DNA of 64,000 bases from Alphaproteobacteria bacterium (GTDB lineage: Bacteria; Pseudomonadota; Alphaproteobacteria; Bin95). The translations under genes were made by a program, and so were the position numbers. Shown here one piece after another: positions 4,693 through 25,867 of the stretch (the first letter of the stretch is position 1; every line of letters begins with the position of its first letter). Where the stretch lies: assembly GCA_965205265.1 (NCBI GenBank), contig CBDBGH010000003.1, positions 4,576,001 through 4,640,000 of the forward strand. Reading direction: 5' to 3'. Below the pieces are notes generated by a model. That model saw only the letters and a program-made list of their open reading frames with translations, ran no database searches and was not told the origin of the DNA.

Positions 4693-5508
4693 ATGGCCGG
4701 AGCTCATTCCACCGGATCGTCGGGCAGGAATGCGCCGCTATCGGGCGGCGGCGTCGATATCCGCTTCGACGCCGGCGGCAGCGGGGCGCCGGTGCTGGTC
4801 ATGCTGCACGGCATCGGCGGCAATGCGGCGGTGTGGAGCCGGATGCTGCCGGTTGTGGAGCGGCGCTGGCCGGGACGCTGGGTCGCCGTCGATCTGCGCG
4901 GCCACGGGCGCTCGGCCCACGCGCCGCCTTACGGCTACGGCGTCTTCGCCGCCGACCTGGCAGGCGCGATCGGCGACCCGGAGGACGAACCGGTCCTGCT
5001 CGGCCATTCGATGGGCGGCGTCGTGGCGATGGCGCTGGCGACCGGGTGGTTCGGCGTCAAGGTGCGCCATGTCTTCGCCTTCGGCGTCAAGATCGGCTGG
5101 ACGGCGGACGAGGTCGCGCGGATGAAGGCGCTGGCCGCCAGGCCGGCACGCGTCTTCGACAACCGCGCGGAAGCGGCCGAGCGCTATCTCAGGGTCTCGG
5201 GCCTCGCCGGCCTTGTGGACCCCGCCGCGCCGGAGGCTCTGGCCGGCATCGTCGAGGCGGAGGGCGGCTTCCGGCTGGCGGCCGACCAGGGCATCTACGC
5301 CGCCGCCGGGCCTGAGGTCGGCAATCTCTACCGGGCTGCGGCGGCGCCGGTCCGGCTCGCCGCCGGCGAAGCCGACCCGATGGTGTCGCTGGCCGAGATG
5401 CAGGCGCTCGATCCGCAGGCCGCGCTGCTGCCCGGCCTCGGCCACAACTGCCATGTCGAGGCGCCGGAGCGGGTCTGGGAGCAGTTGGAAAGGACCCTGG
5501 AGGGTTGA
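4693..5508 (+). CDS. Alpha/beta-fold hydrolase
   Basis: LHGIGG, DLRGHGRS, GHSMGG nucleophile elbow, C-terminal GH; start uncertain. Confidence 0.85.
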   Translation: MAGAHSTGSSGRNAPLSGGGVDIRFDAGGSGAPVLVMLHGIGGNAAVWSRMLPVVERRWPGRWVAVDLRGHGRSAHAPPYGYGVFAADLAGAIGDPEDEPVLLGHSMGGVVAMALATGWFGVKVRHVFAFGVKIGWTADEVARMKALAARPARVFDNRAEAAERYLRVSGLAGLVDPAAPEALAGIVEAEGGFRLAADQGIYAAAGPEVGNLYRAAAAPVRLAAGEADPMVSLAEMQALDPQAALLPGLGHNCHVEAPERVWEQLERTLEG

Positions 5509-5516
5509 AGGCGAGG

Positions 5517-6830
5517 ATGAAGCGCCAACTCCACCTGAACCTGTTCATCTATGCCCGCGGGCACCATGAGGCGGCCTGGCGGCACCCCAGGGCTCCCCGG
5601 CGCGAATTGCTGGACATAGACCATATCGTCGAATGCGCGCGGAAGGCCGAGGCGGCGCACATGGACTCGATCTTCCTCGCCGATACGCTGGGGCTGGCGC
5701 CCGACTCGGACCGCACGGCGCGCATGTATCTGGACCCGTTCACCACGCTGGCGGCAACCGCCATGGCGACCAGCCGTATCGGGCTCATCGGCACGGCTTC
5801 GACGACGCATTCCGAGCCCTTCAATATCGCGCGCATGTTCGCCTCGCTAGACCATATCAGCCGGGGGCGGGCAGGCTGGAACATCGTGACGTCGTTCAGC
5901 ATCGCCGGGGCCAACAATTTCGACAGCAGGGGCCGGCGCTCCCATGCCGACCGGTACGAGCGCGCGGACGAGTTCGTGGAGGTCGCCAAGAAACTCTGGG
6001 ACAGCTGGGCGGACGACGCCATCCTGGACGACCGCGAGGCCGGCTACTACTACCGCCGCGAACGGGTCAGGCCCATCGACCACCACGGCCCCCACTACGA
6101 TGTGGCGGGACCCCTGAACATTCCGCGCGGCCCCCAGGGGTGGCCGGTGCTCGTCCAGGCCGGGTCGTCGGACACCGGCAAGAGCTTCGCGGCAAGGCAT
6201 GCCGAGGCGGTTTTCACCGCCCACATGACCAAGGCGACCGCGCAGGAGTTCTACAAGGACCTGAAGGCGCGAACGGTGGCCGGCGGACGGCCCGCGGACC
6301 AGTGCCTGGTCCTGCCCGGCATCAGCATGGTCATAGCCGGCACGGAGGCCGAGGCCAGGCGAATGGAACGGGAGCTCAACGAGATGGCGGATGTCGAGTC
6401 GAGCCTCTCCCGCCTCTCCCAGCGTTTCGACGGCCATGACTTTTCGCATATCCCACTCGACCGCGTGCTCACCGCCGGCGATTTCCCCGACCCGGCCGAG
6501 AACCAGAGTTCGCGCGGCCGCACGGAGTTGATTGTCGGCGCCGTCATGCGGGAGAATCTGACCATGCGGCAGCTGCTGGGGAAGCTGGCCGGCGCACGCG
6601 GGCACTTCGTCATGGCCGGAACGCCCGAACAGGTCGCCGACACCATCGAAGAGTGGATCGACGACGGCGCGGCCGACGGTTTCAACGTCATGCCGCTGCT
6701 TCTCCCGCATATGCTGGATGCGTTCGCCGACGAGGTGGTGCCGATCCTCAAGCGCCGCGGGCGCTTCCGCACGGCGTATGCTGGCGCGACGCTGCGCGAC
6801 CATTACGGTCTGCAGCGGCCGGCGGCGTAA
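5517..6830 (+). CDS. NtaA/DszA-type FMN-dependent luciferase-like monooxygenase
   Basis: AWRHP, FLAD, FASLDHISRGRAGWNIVTS, PQGWPVLVQAGSS, TLRDHYGL. Confidence 0.92.
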   Translation: MKRQLHLNLFIYARGHHEAAWRHPRAPRRELLDIDHIVECARKAEAAHMDSIFLADTLGLAPDSDRTARMYLDPFTTLAATAMATSRIGLIGTASTTHSEPFNIARMFASLDHISRGRAGWNIVTSFSIAGANNFDSRGRRSHADRYERADEFVEVAKKLWDSWADDAILDDREAGYYYRRERVRPIDHHGPHYDVAGPLNIPRGPQGWPVLVQAGSSDTGKSFAARHAEAVFTAHMTKATAQEFYKDLKARTVAGGRPADQCLVLPGISMVIAGTEAEARRMERELNEMADVESSLSRLSQRFDGHDFSHIPLDRVLTAGDFPDPAENQSSRGRTELIVGAVMRENLTMRQLLGKLAGARGHFVMAGTPEQVADTIEEWIDDGAADGFNVMPLLLPHMLDAFADEVVPILKRRGRFRTAYAGATLRDHYGLQRPAA

Positions 6831-18649: not shown

Positions 18650-20093
18650 CGTCTCGTTCTCCTGCTCCGGCCTCCAACCGGGGTCGATCGGCCGGGCGCC
18701 GGAAACCGGTTTGCAGTTCGGGAATTTTACAAGAGCCTCTTCCCGTAATATCGTCGTCCCATCTTCAGGGGGAAGCTGTGGCTCGCCCGCGAGGCCGAAC
18801 GGTCCCGGGGGCTTCCCTGTCATTGAACCGACTTCGAGAGCGCCGCTTCGCTGTCATCGACTGCGGCCTCCATTGCGGCCGAGGCGCCGCAACGAGCCCC
18901 TGCCGGCATCCTTGCAACGGCGCAAGCGCTTAGGCTGGCAGGACGCGCCGGACTTTCGAGGGGACGGGGCCGAATTGCAGGCCCGGTTCCGGCTTATGGC
19001 GCAAACCGCATCCGTGGCGCGTCGGTCCGAAGCCGGGCCGACCCATGACATGCCGGTCCGGACAGGACCGGCGGATAACCGGGAGTAGGATCGAGCTATG
19101 GAAAGTGTGTCCCTGTCGACGAAGAACTCGGAGTTTGAACTCGAACGCCAGAGCTACAGCGACGACCCGCTGGAGGATCGCGAAACCGATCTCTACCGCG
19201 GCGAGTACATCCTGTCCTTTGTGGAGAAGTGGGACGAGCTGATTAACTGGGCGGCGCGCGCCGAGAGCGAGGGACAGTTTTTCATCGATGTGCTTCGCGC
19301 CCGGGGCAAGGCATCCGTGTTGGATGTCGCCTGCGGCACGGGGTTCCACTCGGTGCGCCTGACCGAGGCCGGCTTCGATGTGACATCGAGCGACGGGTCG
19401 GCCACGATGCTGGCCAAGGCCTTCGAGAACGCCAGGGCGCGCGGGCTGATCCTCAAGACGGTCCAGGCCGACTGGCGTTGGCTGAACCGTCACATCCAGG
19501 GCAAGTACGATGCGATCATCTGCCTCGGCAACTCGTTCACCCACCTGCATGAGGAGCAGGACCGCCGCCGCGCCCTGGCCGAGTTCTACGCCGCGCTGAA
19601 GCATGACGGGATGCTGATCCTGGACCAGCGCAACTACGACGCCATGCTGGACGAGGGCTTTTCATCGAAGCACAAATACTACTACTGCGGCGACGAGGTG
19701 AATGCGGAGCCCGAATATATCGACGACAGCCTCGTCCGGATGAAATACAGCTTCGCCGACGGTTCCGACTACACGCTCAACCTCAGTCCGATCCGCAAGA
19801 ATTACATGCGCCGGCTGCTCGGCGAGGCCGGGTTCGCGCGGGTACGCACCTATGGCGACTTCCAGGAGACTTACGCCGAGAACGAGCCGGACTTCTTCAT
19901 TCATATCGCCGAGAAATCCACGCTGCATGTCGTGCGCTGGGGCGGCGGCGTCCGCGAGGAGGGCGAGAGCGACGTTCGCGACATCACCGAGGACTATTAC
20001 GACAGCGACGACGCCGACACGTTCTACTCGATGGTCTGGGGCGGCGAGGACCTGCATCTCGGCATCTACGAGACGACGCAGGACATTCGCGAG

Positions 20094-20308
20094 GCCAGCG
20101 CCGAAACCGTCGACCGGATGATGGCGATGCTGCCGGGTATCGGCCCCGGCTCCCGCGTTCTGGACATCGGCGCCGGCTATGGCGGCTCGGTGCGGCGCGT
20201 CGTCGGGCGGACCGGCTGCACGGCGACATGCCTCAACATCTCCGAGACGCAGAACGACACCAACCGGGCCAGGAACCGGCAGGCGAAACTCGGCAGCCGG
20301 ATATCGGT
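20094..20308 (+). repeat. 215-bp target-site duplication, left copy (right copy 24232-24446)
   Basis: GCCAGCGCCGAAACC...CCGGATATCGGT appears identically on both sides of the outer IS. Confidence 0.93.
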
Positions 20309-20427
20309 CCTGACTTCGACGGTTGGGCTGACTTCTGACCGATCTCGCGTCTGGAGTTTTCAGTAAAGCCAATGAGTTGGCAGTTGCGGTGCGGTCAAGC
20401 TGCGTTGTAGTGCCTAGTAAATCTTTG

Positions 20428-20518
20428 AGACTGTCAATGCCTCCGCCACGCGCTACACTCCCCCCATGTTCGTGCGCATCAAGACCTCCCCCAACAGCCC
20501 GCGACGCTCGGTCCAGAT
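20428..20518 (+). repeat. 91-bp target-site duplication of the inner IS, left copy (right copy 22435-22525)
   Basis: AGACTGTCAATG...GGTCCAGAT flanks the inner element on both sides. Confidence 0.92.
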
Positions 20519-20640
20519 CCTGACTTCGACGGTTGGGCTGACTTCTGACCGATCTCGCGTCTGGAGTTTTCAGTAAAGCCAATGAGTTGGCAGTTGCGGT
20601 GCGGTCAAGCTGCGTTGTAGTGCCTAGTAAATCTTTGAGA

Positions 20641-20669
20641 CTGTCAATGCCTCCGCCACGCGCTACACT
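20641..20669 (+). promoter_or_regulatory. Putative sigma70 promoter of the transposase (leaderless mRNA)
   Basis: CTGTCA-17 bp-TACACT, 6 nt before ATG 20676, no Shine-Dalgarno; also at 20431-20459 and 22438-22466. Confidence 0.5.
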
Positions 20670-20675
20670 CCCCCC

Positions 20676-22331
20676 ATGTTCGTGCGCATCAAGACCTCCC
20701 CCAACAGCCCGCGACGCTCGGTCCAGATCGTCGAGGCCGTGCGCGACGGCGGCAAGGTCCGACAGCGCATCGTCCGCCATGTCGGCGTGGCCATGGACGA
20801 GGACGAGCTCGAGCGCCTGAGGCAGCTCGGCGAGTACGTCAAGGCGAAGCTGGAGGACGAGCGTCAGCCGGCATTGTTTGCGCCCGAGAAGATCGCTGAG
20901 CAGGCGATCCGTGTCGGCCGCCGGGGGGACGGCAAGGAGGAACTCCCGGTCGACCTCAAGCAGCTTGAAGAGGAGCAGCGCCTGATCACAGGCATCCACG
21001 AGGTCTATGGCGAGATCTACCGGCTGCTGGGCCTCGACGCGCTGCTGCCGCGCTCGCGCTACCGGGCCTCCCATGACGCGCTGTTCCATGTGGTGATGGC
21101 GCGGGTAGCCAACCCCGACAGCAAGCGGGGCAGCGTGCGCCGGCTCGAGGAGGACTTCGGCGTGAGTCTTCCGCTCGAGAAGGTCTACCGGATGATGGAT
21201 CAGCTCGACGCGACGGTGATCGAGCGACTGCGCACGCGCGTCGGCGAGGCGAGCCGGTCGCTGCTGCCGGAGCCGGTCGCGATCCTCTTCTTCGATTGCA
21301 CCACGCTCTACTTCGAGACGGCCGCCGAGGACGAGCTTCGCCAGCACGGCTTCAGCAAGGACGGCAAACACAAGGACTCGCAGGTTCTGCTGGCGCTGAT
21401 GGTGACGCGCGAAGGGCTGCCGATCAGCTACGAGGTCTTCCCCGGCGCCACCTACGAGGGACACAGCATGGTCCCGGTCCTGCAGGACATGCAGCGCCGC
21501 CACCAGGTGGAGCGCACGGTATGCGTGGCCGACCGGGGCATGCTGAGCGCCGACAACCTCGACGCCATGGACGCCATCGGCGGCGAGTATGTCGTCGGCG
21601 CGCGGCTGCGCAAGCTGCCGCTCGCGCTGCTGGGGCAGGTTCTCGACCCCGGGACCTATGCCCCGCTGGAGGGCTCACAGGACCGCCGGGTCGGCGAGTG
21701 GGAGTACAAGGGCCGTCGCCTGATCGTCGTCTTCTGCCCCCAGCGCGCACGCAAGGACGCGCACGAGCGCCGCCATCAGGTGGAACGCCTGCTCGACAGG
21801 CTGGCCCGCAGCGACAATCCCAGGGAACTGCTCTCCAATCACGGGGCGAAGCGCTTCATCGCCGTCGAGGGCGACGCACGGCTCACGGTGAACCCGGAGA
21901 AGATCGCCGAGGCCGCACGATGGGACGGGCTCACCGGCGTCATCACCAATCTGCGCGACGCGCGCGTCACCGAAGTGATGGCTCACTACCAGGGGCTCTG
22001 GCAGGTCGAGGAGAGCTTCCGGATCACCAAACACGACCTGAAGATACGTCCCATCTGGCACTGGAACCCGGACCGGATCCGCGCTCACATCGCCATCGCC
22101 TTCCTGGCCTTCGCCTGCGTTCGACACCTTGCGTACCGCGTCGCCATCCAGAAGCGGCGGATGTCCCCGGAGGTCATCCGCTCCGCCCTCGTCCACCGCC
22201 AGTGCTCCCTGCTGCGCTGTCGGCAATCGGGCAACCGCTACGTCATCCCCTCGAAGCCGACACCGGCGGCGGAGCAGATTTACGCAACCATGGGGCTGCC
22301 CCTGACGATCACCCCGTATCAACTCGCCTGA
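20676..22331 (+). CDS. IS1634-family DDE transposase (551 aa)
   Basis: FFDCTTLYF, GFSKD, VADRGM, YQGLWQVEESFRITK (YREK-like), RIRAHI. Confidence 0.93.
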   Translation: MFVRIKTSPNSPRRSVQIVEAVRDGGKVRQRIVRHVGVAMDEDELERLRQLGEYVKAKLEDERQPALFAPEKIAEQAIRVGRRGDGKEELPVDLKQLEEEQRLITGIHEVYGEIYRLLGLDALLPRSRYRASHDALFHVVMARVANPDSKRGSVRRLEEDFGVSLPLEKVYRMMDQLDATVIERLRTRVGEASRSLLPEPVAILFFDCTTLYFETAAEDELRQHGFSKDGKHKDSQVLLALMVTREGLPISYEVFPGATYEGHSMVPVLQDMQRRHQVERTVCVADRGMLSADNLDAMDAIGGEYVVGARLRKLPLALLGQVLDPGTYAPLEGSQDRRVGEWEYKGRRLIVVFCPQRARKDAHERRHQVERLLDRLARSDNPRELLSNHGAKRFIAVEGDARLTVNPEKIAEAARWDGLTGVITNLRDARVTEVMAHYQGLWQVEESFRITKHDLKIRPIWHWNPDRIRAHIAIAFLAFACVRHLAYRVAIQKRRMSPEVIRSALVHRQCSLLRCRQSGNRYVIPSKPTPAAEQIYATMGLPLTITPYQLA

Positions 22332-22397
22332 CCGTCGACGAAGCACGGCTCGAAGAAATGCCGGATGTAGTGCCTAGCCGAAATGAGAACCAGGCAA

Positions 22398-22410
22398 TAT
22401 CAACTACTTA
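22398..22410 (+). promoter_or_regulatory. IHF-consensus site near the IS right end (also 24195-24207)
   Basis: TATCAACTACTTA matches WATCAANNNNTTR exactly. Confidence 0.55.
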
Positions 22411-22472
22411 TGCGAATCAACCGTCGAAGTCAGGAGACTGTCAATGCCTCCGCCACGCGCTACACTCCCCCC

Positions 22473-24128
22473 ATGTTCGTGCGCATCAAGACCTCCCCCA
22501 ACAGCCCGCGACGCTCGGTCCAGATCGTCGAGGCCGTGCGCGACGGCGGCAAGGTCCGACAGCGCATCGTCCGCCATGTCGGCGTGGCCATGGACGAGGA
22601 CGAGCTCGAGCGCCTGAGGCAGCTCGGCGAGTACGTCAAGGCGAAGCTGGAGGACGAGCGTCAGCCGGCATTGTTTGCGCCCGAGAAGATCGCTGAGCAG
22701 GCGATCCGTGTCGGCCGCCGGGGGGACGGCAAGGAGGAACTCCCGGTCGACCTCAAGCAGCTTGAAGAGGAGCAGCGCCTGATCACAGGCATCCACGAGG
22801 TCTATGGCGAGATCTACCGGCTGCTGGGCCTCGACGCGCTGCTGCCGCGCTCGCGCTACCGGGCCTCCCATGACGCGCTGTTCCATGTGGTGATGGCGCG
22901 GGTAGCCAACCCCGACAGCAAGCGGGGCAGCGTGCGCCGGCTCGAGGAGGACTTCGGCGTGAGTCTTCCGCTCGAGAAGGTCTACCGGATGATGGATCAG
23001 CTCGACGCGACGGTGATCGAGCGACTGCGCACGCGCGTCGGCGAGGCGAGCCGGTCGCTGCTGCCGGAGCCGGTCGCGATCCTCTTCTTCGATTGCACCA
23101 CGCTCTACTTCGAGACGGCCGCCGAGGACGAGCTTCGCCAGCACGGCTTCAGCAAGGACGGCAAACACAAGGACTCGCAGGTTCTGCTGGCGCTGATGGT
23201 GACGCGCGAAGGGCTGCCGATCAGCTACGAGGTCTTCCCCGGCGCCACCTACGAGGGACACAGCATGGTCCCGGTCCTGCAGGACATGCAGCGCCGCCAC
23301 CAGGTGGAGCGCACGGTATGCGTGGCCGACCGGGGCATGCTGAGCGCCGACAACCTCGACGCCATGGACGCCATCGGCGGCGAGTATGTCGTCGGCGCGC
23401 GGCTGCGCAAGCTGCCGCTCGCGCTGCTGGGGCAGGTTCTCGACCCCGGGACCTATGCCCCGCTGGAGGGCTCACAGGACCGCCGGGTCGGCGAGTGGGA
23501 GTACAAGGGCCGTCGCCTGATCGTCGTCTTCTGCCCCCAGCGCGCACGCAAGGACGCGCACGAGCGCCGCCATCAGGTGGAACGCCTGCTCGACAGGCTG
23601 GCCCGCAGCGACAATCCCAGGGAACTGCTCTCCAATCACGGGGCGAAGCGCTTCATCGCCGTCGAGGGCGACGCACGGCTCACGGTGAACCCGGAGAAGA
23701 TCGCCGAGGCCGCACGATGGGACGGGCTCACCGGCGTCATCACCAATCTGCGCGACGCGCGCGTCACCGAAGTGATGGCTCACTACCAGGGGCTCTGGCA
23801 GGTCGAGGAGAGCTTCCGGATCACCAAACACGACCTGAAGATACGTCCCATCTGGCACTGGAACCCGGACCGGATCCGCGCTCACATCGCCATCGCCTTC
23901 CTGGCCTTCGCCTGCGTTCGACACCTTGCGTACCGCGTCGCCATCCAGAAGCGGCGGATGTCCCCGGAGGTCATCCGCTCCGCCCTCGTCCACCGCCAGT
24001 GCTCCCTGCTGCGCTGTCGGCAATCGGGCAACCGCTACGTCATCCCCTCGAAGCCGACACCGGCGGCGGAGCAGATTTACGCAACCATGGGGCTGCCCCT
24101 GACGATCACCCCGTATCAACTCGCCTGA
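22473..24128 (+). CDS. IS1634-family DDE transposase, second intact copy
   Basis: Same 551-aa translation as 20676-22331; start codon supplied by the 91-bp duplication. Confidence 0.92.
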   Translation: MFVRIKTSPNSPRRSVQIVEAVRDGGKVRQRIVRHVGVAMDEDELERLRQLGEYVKAKLEDERQPALFAPEKIAEQAIRVGRRGDGKEELPVDLKQLEEEQRLITGIHEVYGEIYRLLGLDALLPRSRYRASHDALFHVVMARVANPDSKRGSVRRLEEDFGVSLPLEKVYRMMDQLDATVIERLRTRVGEASRSLLPEPVAILFFDCTTLYFETAAEDELRQHGFSKDGKHKDSQVLLALMVTREGLPISYEVFPGATYEGHSMVPVLQDMQRRHQVERTVCVADRGMLSADNLDAMDAIGGEYVVGARLRKLPLALLGQVLDPGTYAPLEGSQDRRVGEWEYKGRRLIVVFCPQRARKDAHERRHQVERLLDRLARSDNPRELLSNHGAKRFIAVEGDARLTVNPEKIAEAARWDGLTGVITNLRDARVTEVMAHYQGLWQVEESFRITKHDLKIRPIWHWNPDRIRAHIAIAFLAFACVRHLAYRVAIQKRRMSPEVIRSALVHRQCSLLRCRQSGNRYVIPSKPTPAAEQIYATMGLPLTITPYQLA

Positions 24129-24967
24129 CCGTCGACGAAGCACGGCTCGAAGAAATGCCGGATGTAGTGCCTAGCCGAAATGAGAACCAGGCAATATCAA
24201 CTACTTATGCGAATCAACCGTCGAAGTCAGGGCCAGCGCCGAAACCGTCGACCGGATGATGGCGATGCTGCCGGGTATCGGCCCCGGCTCCCGCGTTCTG
24301 GACATCGGCGCCGGCTATGGCGGCTCGGTGCGGCGCGTCGTCGGGCGGACCGGCTGCACGGCGACATGCCTCAACATCTCCGAGACGCAGAACGACACCA
24401 ACCGGGCCAGGAACCGGCAGGCGAAACTCGGCAGCCGGATATCGGTGGTGCACGGCGTCTTCGAGGACATCCCCGACCCGGACGCCAGCTATGACGCGGT
24501 ATGGAGCCAGGACGCCCTCCTGCATTCCGACCAGCGCGACAGGGTGCTGGCCGAAGTCTGGCGCGTGCTGAAGCCGGGCGGCCACTTCGTGTTCACCGAC
24601 CCGATGCAGGCCGACGACGTGCCGGACGGCGTGCTCCAGCCCGTTTACGACCGGCTCCAGCTCAACAGTCTCGGCTCCATGCGCTTCTACCGGGAGGCGG
24701 CGCAGGCGCTGGGCTTCGAGGTGTTGGCGCAGGAGGACATGACCCGTCATCTCCGCACCCACTACGACCGGGTGCGGGAGGAGCTCACGGCCGGTTACGA
24801 CAAGCTGCGGGAAAACGGCGCCTCGGCGGCGTATCTCGACAAGATGACCGTCGGCCTCGAGAACTGGGTGAAGGCCGCGGATGCCGGACACCTGGCCTGG
24901 GGCATCCAGCTTTTCCGCAAGCCGGAGTGAGGCGCCGGCGCGCCCGCCGCACCGGCCCGTTTGCATC

Positions 24968-25867
24968 ATGAACCGGTATATCCATGACAAAGAGACCGGC
25001 TGCTCCGGCATTCGGGTATCGTTCGAGCTGTTCCCGCCGAAGACGCCGGAAGGCCTGCTCAGACTGTACCGCGAGGTCGACCGGCTGGCGGCGCTGGAGC
25101 CGGAGTATTTCTCCGTCACCTACGGCGCCGGCGGTGCGACGCAGGGCCGCACCGGCGGCGTCGTCGACCGGGTGGCCGAGCGCACCGGCCTGCCCGTCGC
25201 CCACCATCTGACCTGTGTCGGGGCGAGCCGGGCCGGGATAGACGCGCTCGCCCGCAAACTCCGGGACTCCGGCATCCGGCGCATTGTCGCATTACGGGGC
25301 GATCCGCCGGGCGGCGGGTCTTACCGCCCGTCCGCGGGCGGTTATCCCTTCGCAGTCGATCTGGTCGAGGGGCTCATGCGCGTCGCCGACTTCGACATCG
25401 CTGTGGCCGCCTATCTGGAGGTTCACCCGGAGGCGGCGAGCCCGGAGGCGGATATCGACAATCTCAAACGCAAGTTCGACGCCGGCGCCCGCTTCGCGAT
25501 CACGCAATATGCCTTCGACACGGACACGGTGCTCCGCTTCATCGACCGCGCCAGGGCGGCCGGGATCGGCGCGCCGATCGTGCCGGGCATCATGCCGGTC
25601 AGCCATTTCGGCGGATTGAAGCGCTTCTCGGCCAGGTGCGGGGCATCGATCCCCGACTGGATGGAACGCATGTTCGAAGGACTGGACGAGCGGCCCCGGG
25701 CGCGCGCATCCGCCGCCGCGGCGGTGGCGATCGAGCAATGCCGGCGCCTCGCCGACGAGGGCCTGACCGACTTCCACATTTACACCCTGAACAAGGCGGA
25801 GGTCAGCATCGCGCTCTGCCGGGCCCTGCGGACCGGCGCCGGGCAGCCCGGCCTAAGCGCGGCCTGA
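24968..25867 (+). CDS. metF: 5,10-methylenetetrahydrofolate reductase
   Basis: SFELFPPKT, SVTYGAGG, HLTC, IVALRGDPP, NLKRK, FHIYTLN. Confidence 0.95.
   Translation: MNRYIHDKETGCSGIRVSFELFPPKTPEGLLRLYREVDRLAALEPEYFSVTYGAGGATQGRTGGVVDRVAERTGLPVAHHLTCVGASRAGIDALARKLRDSGIRRIVALRGDPPGGGSYRPSAGGYPFAVDLVEGLMRVADFDIAVAAYLEVHPEAASPEADIDNLKRKFDAGARFAITQYAFDTDTVLRFIDRARAAGIGAPIVPGIMPVSHFGGLKRFSARCGASIPDWMERMFEGLDERPRARASAAAAVAIEQCRRLADEGLTDFHIYTLNKAEVSIALCRALRTGAGQPGLSAA

Follow-up and report, generated by a model that had tools for sequence, protein, structure and literature searches.

A self-nested insertion sequence of the IS1634 family and its long, variable target duplications in an alphaproteobacterial genome

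How does an insertion sequence (IS) come to lie inside an identical copy of itself, with one direct repeat of 91 bp around the inner copy and another of 215 bp around the outer one? The question is raised by positions 20309-24231 of a 64,000-nucleotide stretch of DNA (hereafter the window) from an Alphaproteobacteria bacterium (GenBank assembly GCA_965205265.1, contig CBDBGH010000003.1, positions 4,576,001 to 4,640,000 of the forward strand). Nearly all DDE (aspartate-aspartate-glutamate) transposons leave short target duplications of fixed length, since the synaptic complex keeps the target in a rigid grip between its two active sites. The elements IS1549 and IS1634 are exceptions in their family, with repeats of 8-514 bp for which, according to a 2008 review, a mechanistic model was still lacking (PMC2266710). 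The original prediction for this locus had named the long, variable duplications of these two elements, and the same review does state them. Our reading, to which we assign a probability of about 0.85, is that an element of the IS1634 family hit a methyltransferase gene and duplicated 215 bp of it, that an identical copy was then nested in the first with a duplication of 91 bp, and that long duplications of variable length are the normal product of this element, the two joints of each insertion probably being made at YT|C sites that are chosen separately.

The inner IS is complete and occupies positions 20519-22434 (1916 bp by script check of the window), with its inverted repeats at 20519-20535 and 22418-22434. 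The outer IS is broken by it and was rebuilt from 20309-20518 and 22526-24231, which again gives 1916 bp; the base-by-base alignment that the original prediction had called for shows 0 mismatches between the two copies (100% identity). The left part of the outer IS (20309-20518) corresponds to IS positions 1-210, is 100% identical to IS 1-210/211 and carries the left inverted repeat at 20309-20325. The right part, as it stands in the window, extends over 22435-24231 (IS positions 120-1916). It opens with the right copy of the inner duplication, 91 bp long (22435-22525), and has its right inverted repeat at 24215-24231. All these parts are on the + strand. The terminal inverted repeats are 17 bp long and perfect (CCTGACTTCGACGGTTG). 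The terminal sequence TCCTGACTTCGACGGTTG was found at 20308 and 20518, and its reverse complement at 22418-22435 and 24215-24231; some inverted-repeat pairs in the scan reach 18 bp because an adjoining target T/A extends the match by chance.

The inner IS is bounded by an exact 91-bp direct repeat (20428-20518 = 22435-22525, both on the + strand; outer IS positions 120-210), and the outer IS by an exact 215-bp direct repeat (20094-20308 = 24232-24446, + strand). In a repeat scan of window positions 19500-25000, three exact direct repeats were present, of more than 300 nt (spacing 1797), 216 nt (spacing 4138) and 210 nt (spacing 210). In the genome the 215-bp repeat has two copies and the 91-bp repeat is part of the IS; the 91- and 215-bp repeats are not chance, because these copy numbers are as expected and both repeats abut precise IS ends. 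Every coordinate and length of the original prediction, which had given both elements 1916 bp, the same 17-bp termini and direct repeats of these two sizes, was thus reproduced.

Along the locus the order is IS[1-210], IS[1-1916], IS[120-1916], so that the inner IS breaks the outer one at IS position 210 and IS positions 120-210 are duplicated. Since both internal joints of the pair involve a precise IS tip, a full copy inserted in another copy is the only simple parse. Tandem duplication and slippage were considered as sources of the pattern and rejected, as neither would yield this order of segments.

Each element has a single open reading frame (ORF) of 551 amino acids, at IS positions 158-1813, which encodes the transposase. 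In the inner IS it lies at 20676-22331 (+ strand) and matches NF033559 and DDE_Tnp_1. The outer transposase gene has also been kept complete, at 22473-24128 (+ strand), since the 91-bp duplication spans the start of the gene and regenerates its 5' end. A practical consequence of the long duplication is therefore that the 5' end of an interrupted transposase gene is restored and that both nested copies have intact ORFs. An in-frame upstream ATG at 22383, within the right end of the inner IS, lengthens the outer open frame to 581 amino acids (22383-24128).

The outer IS lies in a gene whose 5' part occupies 19098-20308 (+ strand), where the ORF 19098-20366 runs into the IS, and whose 3' part occupies 24232-24930 (+ strand), where frame 0 from 24232 continues the methyltransferase sequence. 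By its intact orthologue of 564 amino acids (L002:1299-2993), which has two methyltransferase domains and matches NF051855 (454 bits) and NF041675, the disrupted gene encodes a fused glycine/sarcosine and sarcosine/dimethylglycine N-methyltransferase. The gene is intact in all 6 relatives examined. In 6/6 of these genomes, in which the locus is 90-97% identical and the window flanks align to overlapping coordinates, the 215-bp stretch is single; because it is present only once there, the 215-bp repeat is a true target duplication. At another IS copy, a 466-bp repeat is single-copy in 5/5 relatives. The strain has probably lost the methyltransferase route to glycine betaine. The disrupted gene, which belongs to the glycine-to-betaine pathway, sits between a coenzyme A (CoA)-transferase gene and a methylenetetrahydrofolate reductase gene; the latter follows it at 24881-25867, and its orthologous neighbour (L002:2944-3939) matches Pfam MTHFR.

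These observations agree with the two successive insertions of the original prediction, as the inner IS cuts the outer one at IS position 210 and the outer one cuts a gene that is intact in 6/6 relatives. On this reading the outer IS first entered the gene for glycine-betaine synthesis, duplicating 215 bp of target, and an identical copy then entered the outer IS at IS positions 120-210, duplicating 91 bp. The nesting could also have arisen at another place, and the 3923-bp composite could later have jumped whole into the methyltransferase gene. Mobilisation of such a composite is possible in principle, as its outer ends and the transposase ORFs of both copies are intact. The genome has no second composite or internal junction, only one partial match to IS 1-211, and this order needs the same number of events with a larger cargo; nothing separates it from the simple order, and we consider it improbable.

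Whether long duplications are the habit of the element can be read from its other copies. The window is part of a contig of 5.46 Mb in a genome of three contigs, and BLAST found 63 IS loci, all on this large contig, of which 61 have both ends. They comprise 55 full-length copies (53 at 100% identity and 2 with one mismatch), the outer nested copy, five copies split by a 2.79-kb IS21-type element and two truncated copies (IS 1-1579 and IS 1-696). With 53 of the 55 full-length copies identical, the element is evidently recent and active. Among the full-length copies, 48/55 have exact repeats of 6-573 bp abutting both tips. When every left end was paired with every right end, four of the split copies were found to have repeats of 374, 187, 161 and 151 bp. 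The fifth split copy has a repeat of 5 bp. One copy that seemed to lack a repeat does have one, of 111 bp, into whose left copy the 2.79-kb element later inserted, and one 76-bp repeat is common to the ends of two distant copies. In all, 58 duplications could be resolved for the 61 two-ended copies. They range over 5-573 bp with a median of about 140 bp, and only 3/58 are 8 bp or shorter; 57 of the 61 copies have a resolved duplication of their own. The original prediction would have been untenable had the other copies carried short duplications alone; the tabulation of all genomic copies shows long ones at these copies as well.

The repeat sequences are mutually unrelated, and most occur in exactly two copies; four of them fall within other repeated elements. 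Their lengths (56 of the 58) show no periodicity or clustering over a jitter null (Rayleigh p = 0.56, window p = 0.25, close pairs p = 0.34), and a clump of six lengths at 198-205 bp falls within that null. For the four longest repeats (573, 568, 567 and 528 bp), the evidence is that they are exact, occur in two copies and adjoin the IS tips.

The copies of the element have also been involved in rearrangements. Two inverted copies 310 kb apart (G000:C3:4892940-4894855 and 5202993-5204908) have swapped flanks, with repeats of 100 and 172 bp, a pattern that indicates inversion by recombination between copies. At another locus (L019, G000:C3:4811944-4814566) there is a tandem duplication with a unit of about 1.29 kb, made of about 600 bp of flank and IS positions 1-696; its units are 96.6% alike, and a 287-bp target repeat is present three times. 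In view of such IS-mediated rearrangements, the long flanking repeats could be thought to have existed before the insertions or to stem from recombination between IS copies. The empty sites carry the stretch once in 6/6 (215 bp) and 5/5 (466 bp) relatives, the exact repeats of the 48 full-length copies start precisely at both tips, and recombination between copies yields IS-X-IS rather than X-IS-X. An origin other than transposition is for these reasons scarcely conceivable. Only two exact two-copy tandem duplications with no IS between the units, of 572 and 127 bp, match the IS duplications in size (G000:C3:20554-21698 and G000:C3:4675487-4675740). Their size would suit footprints of IS excision, although their ends lack the A...T signature, and they are probably not such footprints.

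The same habit is found in related elements. A scan with one genome per species gave 79 loci with transposases 44-99% identical to this one, in records titled Alphaproteobacteria, Candidatus Poriferihabitaceae, Pseudohongiella, Pseudomonadales, Paracoccaceae, Chloroflexota and Bacteroidales. In 72/79 of them both ends could be located by their motif (CCTGACTTCGAC or CCCGACTTCGAC), and 52 of these 72 have abutting repeats of 16-1318 bp, 49 of them exact and 3 with 2-5 mismatches. The longest repeats measure 1318, 1309, 978, 751 and 684 bp, and no further IS end motif was found in the 2.8-kb flanks of these loci. The two largest are exact (1318 bp, L054:1526-2843 with 4767-6084; 1309 bp, L034:1535-2843 with 4767-6075) and belong to elements whose transposases are 90-93% identical to this one; they are far over the 514 bp quoted in the review's part on the family (PMC2266710).

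The insertion sites are not random with respect to sequence. A T stands at -1 of the left end in 51/62 ends (genome T 16%; p = 1e-30) and an A at +1 of the right end in 45/61 ends (genome A 16%; p = 1e-23). As both bases are present in both duplication copies, they are target bases and not part of the IS. Cut sites were rebuilt from those 50 of the 53 locally paired copies that have repeats of at least 12 bp, and in the resulting 100 sites position -2 is Y in 71/100, -1 is T in 75/100, +1 is C in 66/100 and +2 is T or A in 73/100. The preference is thus YT|C, with the same pattern on both strands (symmetric). In the related loci T is at -1 in 53/72 and A at +1 in 57/72, and the cut-site logo is the same. 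The 91-bp inner duplication begins with A and ends with T, like most other junctions, and both junctions of the inner IS fit the rule (G|AG and AT|CG).

A rigid Tn5-like synaptic complex cannot span such distances. We suggest that the two transposon 3'-OH ends would attack opposite target strands at separately chosen YT|C sites, the two joints lying tens to hundreds of bases apart and always with a 5' stagger; by the standard DDE mechanism, each transposon 3' end would be joined 5' of an A. The stretch between the joints would be copied by host repair or replication, which would leave the long direct repeat. The second joint may be placed by a flexible or looped synaptic complex, in which two loosely coupled active sites hold a looped target, or it may trail a moving nick, or a polymerase or fork that started from the first nick. 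The original prediction of strand transfer with widely separated or migrating nicks fits these data and is still conjectural. Resolvable insertions are always duplications and not deletions, and no target deletion was demonstrated among the copies of this genome; the near-absence of deletion-type products argues that the polarity is imposed, either by the complex or by which intermediates can be completed.

A stronger version is put forward tentatively, and the odds are, in our view, against it. Transposases of the whole clade might join the two ends in separate single-end strand transfers that are mechanically uncoupled. Each transfer would go to a YT|C site of its own on one and the same target molecule, at distances of up to 1.3 kb and with the stagger always 5', and host replication restart or strand-displacement synthesis across the duplex in between would complete the insertion. 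If this were true, the length of a duplication would record either the travel of a fork or polymerase or the size of the captured target loop before the second joint was made, and target capture by uncoupled transfer would have no described precedent among DDE transposases. The element, whose roughly 60 copies are identical and active and whose cut-site motif is defined, would then be a tractable model.

Several observations weigh against our reading of the locus and of the element. The first concerns the assembly. Contigs from 4 public runs (3 studies), searched with window positions 20440-22510, break off without exception at the IS ends and cross neither 20518/20519 nor 22434/22435; these contigs are short-read, so that the outcome neither supports nor refutes the nesting, and the nested assembly rests on internal consistency. 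The arrangement could accordingly be a repeat-induced misassembly of what is really one copy or two separate copies, since some 60 identical 1.9-kb repeats hamper assembly. The internal joints are exact tip-to-interior joints with the element's own signature (a 91-bp repeat with A...T ends, and T|C), which a collapse or chimaera would not create, and in this three-contig genome all other copies are resolved, most of them with clean repeats. Misassembly is thus very improbable.

The second group concerns the duplications. For the four longest repeats, no collinear empty site was found in the 5 relatives searched. Of the 61 two-ended copies, two (4956424 and 3249125) lack a repeat, and in another two one end is without a match. 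A search of 5 relatives showed the flanks of the repeat-less copies to be missing or rearranged there, and deletion-type insertion may have taken place at these two copies. Around the repeat-less copies, no repeats > 1.5 kb were found up to 12 kb, save for the interrupted 111-bp case. The four unresolved ends weaken the argument for an imposed polarity. Among the related elements, 20/72 loci have no repeat, as have the single related copies in two congeneric genomes (2/2). In addition, the outer IS of the nested pair fits the cut-site rule at one end (GT|G), its left cut being G|G and not the preferred G|A. Finally, uncoupled joints, polarity and host synthesis are all deduced from the products of insertion.

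The nested pair also raises the question whether the element seeks itself as a target. The original prediction had spoken of self-targeting, which stands as a description and not as a preference. In favour of a preference for itself or its near neighbourhood (homing or local hopping), one may cite the nested pair, six start-to-start distances below 5 kb, and a tandem pair in the same orientation only 66 bp apart (L025, G000:C3:2238312-2245209), whose duplications of 46 and 51 bp overlap by 31 bp; the empty site of the latter pair in a relative (G007) does show the overlap that is expected, about 31-34 bp. By our own arithmetic, with IS DNA at about 2% of the chromosome, some 60 insertions should give 0.6-0.8 self or near-self hits anyway. 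The six close distances stand against an expectation of 3.5, a clustering that is not significant (p = 0.13; p = 0.28 under a regional null), and YT|C sites occur in the IS interior as in any other DNA. A preference of this kind is therefore unlikely; chance suffices for one self-insertion, and nesting is ordinary in an IS-rich genome.

The 2.79-kb element that splits some of the copies belongs to the IS21 family (IstA 200 bits, IstB 282 bits) and is present in 34 full-length copies of three sequence variants, at L015:1479-4265 (G000:C3:3851478-3854264) and at 33 other places on G000:C3. Six of these copies lie within or directly against the 1916-bp IS and a seventh in one target duplication, and two insertions share the same IS position, 1333-1341. 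Set against the mere 2% or so of the chromosome that the 1916-bp IS occupies, these numbers suggest that the IS21-type element prefers it as a target. The cumulative GC skew of G000:C3 shows no clean origin or terminus (minimum at 4.34 Mb, maximum at 5.45 Mb) and is of no use for orientation against replication, and the distribution of the IS copies is uneven, 14 of them falling in the 2.0-2.5 Mb bin. Both features would be in keeping with extensive rearrangement of the chromosome by its insertion sequences.

Which element is it? The transposase matches NF033559, the NCBIfam model of the IS1634 family, with 341.3 bits (cut-off 100) over profile positions 1-482 of 483, and the next-best model, IS4, gives 45.8 bits, under its cut-off of 115; Pfam DDE_Tnp_1 is matched as well. 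Judged by its transposase, the element is a member of the IS1634 family. The original prediction, which had called it an IS1634 element, holds for the family and is not borne out for IS1634 itself. Identity with the Mycoplasma IS1634 is unlikely because of the 68% G+C and because the nearest transposase relatives are in records titled Alphaproteobacteria. The IS was absent from the plasmid collection searched.

In an alignment of 12 homologues (45-93% identity to the transposase), D207, D286, E445 and Y438 are invariant (12/12) and K452 is nearly so; in the DDE core, a large insertion separates the second D from the E (D286-E445). We take D207, D286 and E445, from their motif context, to be the catalytic triad. 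The R that IS4 elements have in YREK is replaced by an invariant L441, and a YREK variant in which the arginine is usually missing is given for the IS1634 family in the review's section on it (PMC2266710). The family entry in the table of the same review lists a length of 1500-2000 bp, a single transposase and the terminal consensus C-----YT (PMC2266710). With 1916 bp, one ORF and ends that read CCTGACTT, the element agrees with both the family size and the end consensus. It departs from the family norm of AT-rich duplications of 5-6 bp, as described there (PMC2266710), with its 58 duplications of variable length. An AlphaFold (AF2) model of the transposase has a mean predicted local distance difference test (pLDDT) score of 76.8. 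The top five Foldseek matches of this model are Tn5 transposase entries (probability 1.00, E 2e-6 to 2e-5), the best being the Tn5 transposase-DNA complex 1muh (E 2.3e-6), but their template modelling (TM) scores are only 0.31-0.37. No solved structure matched the transposase by sequence (E <= 1).

Taken together, this is a known oddity of a known family in a new, highly expanded member, and long variable duplications themselves are already described. Full-text literature searches returned nothing newer on the mechanism and no report of this element; the cut-site rule or nested copies may be in the original IS1549 and IS1634 papers. The new value is modest and lies in a large set of junctions (58 exact insertion junctions in one genome and 52 in related elements), in the YT|C rule and in duplications that reach 1.3 kb among relatives. 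These findings, and the duplication-only outcome of resolvable insertions, are constraints on any mechanism, and an element is now named on which the question of long duplications could be tested. The nested pair itself is a small curiosity.

Among known systems, IS50/Tn5 and the IS4 family resemble this element in that the second D and the E of their DDE core are set apart by a large insertion, and Tn5 complexes are the best, if weak, fold matches of its transposase. They differ from it by the R of YREK, replaced here by L441, and by the lack of a match at the sequence level between this transposase and solved structures. Furthermore, IS4-family elements make fixed duplications of 8-13 bp, as the review states in its account of that family (PMC2266710). 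Typical members of the IS1634 family, such as ISGka5 of Geobacillus kaustophilus, are closer, since the family model, the size range and the single transposase are shared and their C-----YT ends correspond to CCTGACTT here. In contrast to this element, they duplicate 5-6 bp; for ISGka5, a 6-bp duplication after actual transposition is given in the relevant part of the report on it (PMC8024623). The closest likeness in behaviour is to IS1549 of Mycobacterium smegmatis and IS1634 of Mycoplasma mycoides subsp. mycoides SC, with which the element shares the transposase family and long repeats that vary from copy to copy. A high copy number and inversions are also common to this element and IS1634, which in the accounts consulted has 60-65 copies in Mycoplasma mycoides and drives inversions there (PMC2266710; PMC3053259). 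The differences from IS1549 and IS1634 lie in the host, whose genome has 68% G+C and whose element has its nearest transposase relatives under alphaproteobacterial titles, and in the reach of the duplications, which extend to 573 bp here and to 1318 bp in relatives, against the 514 bp quoted for those two elements.

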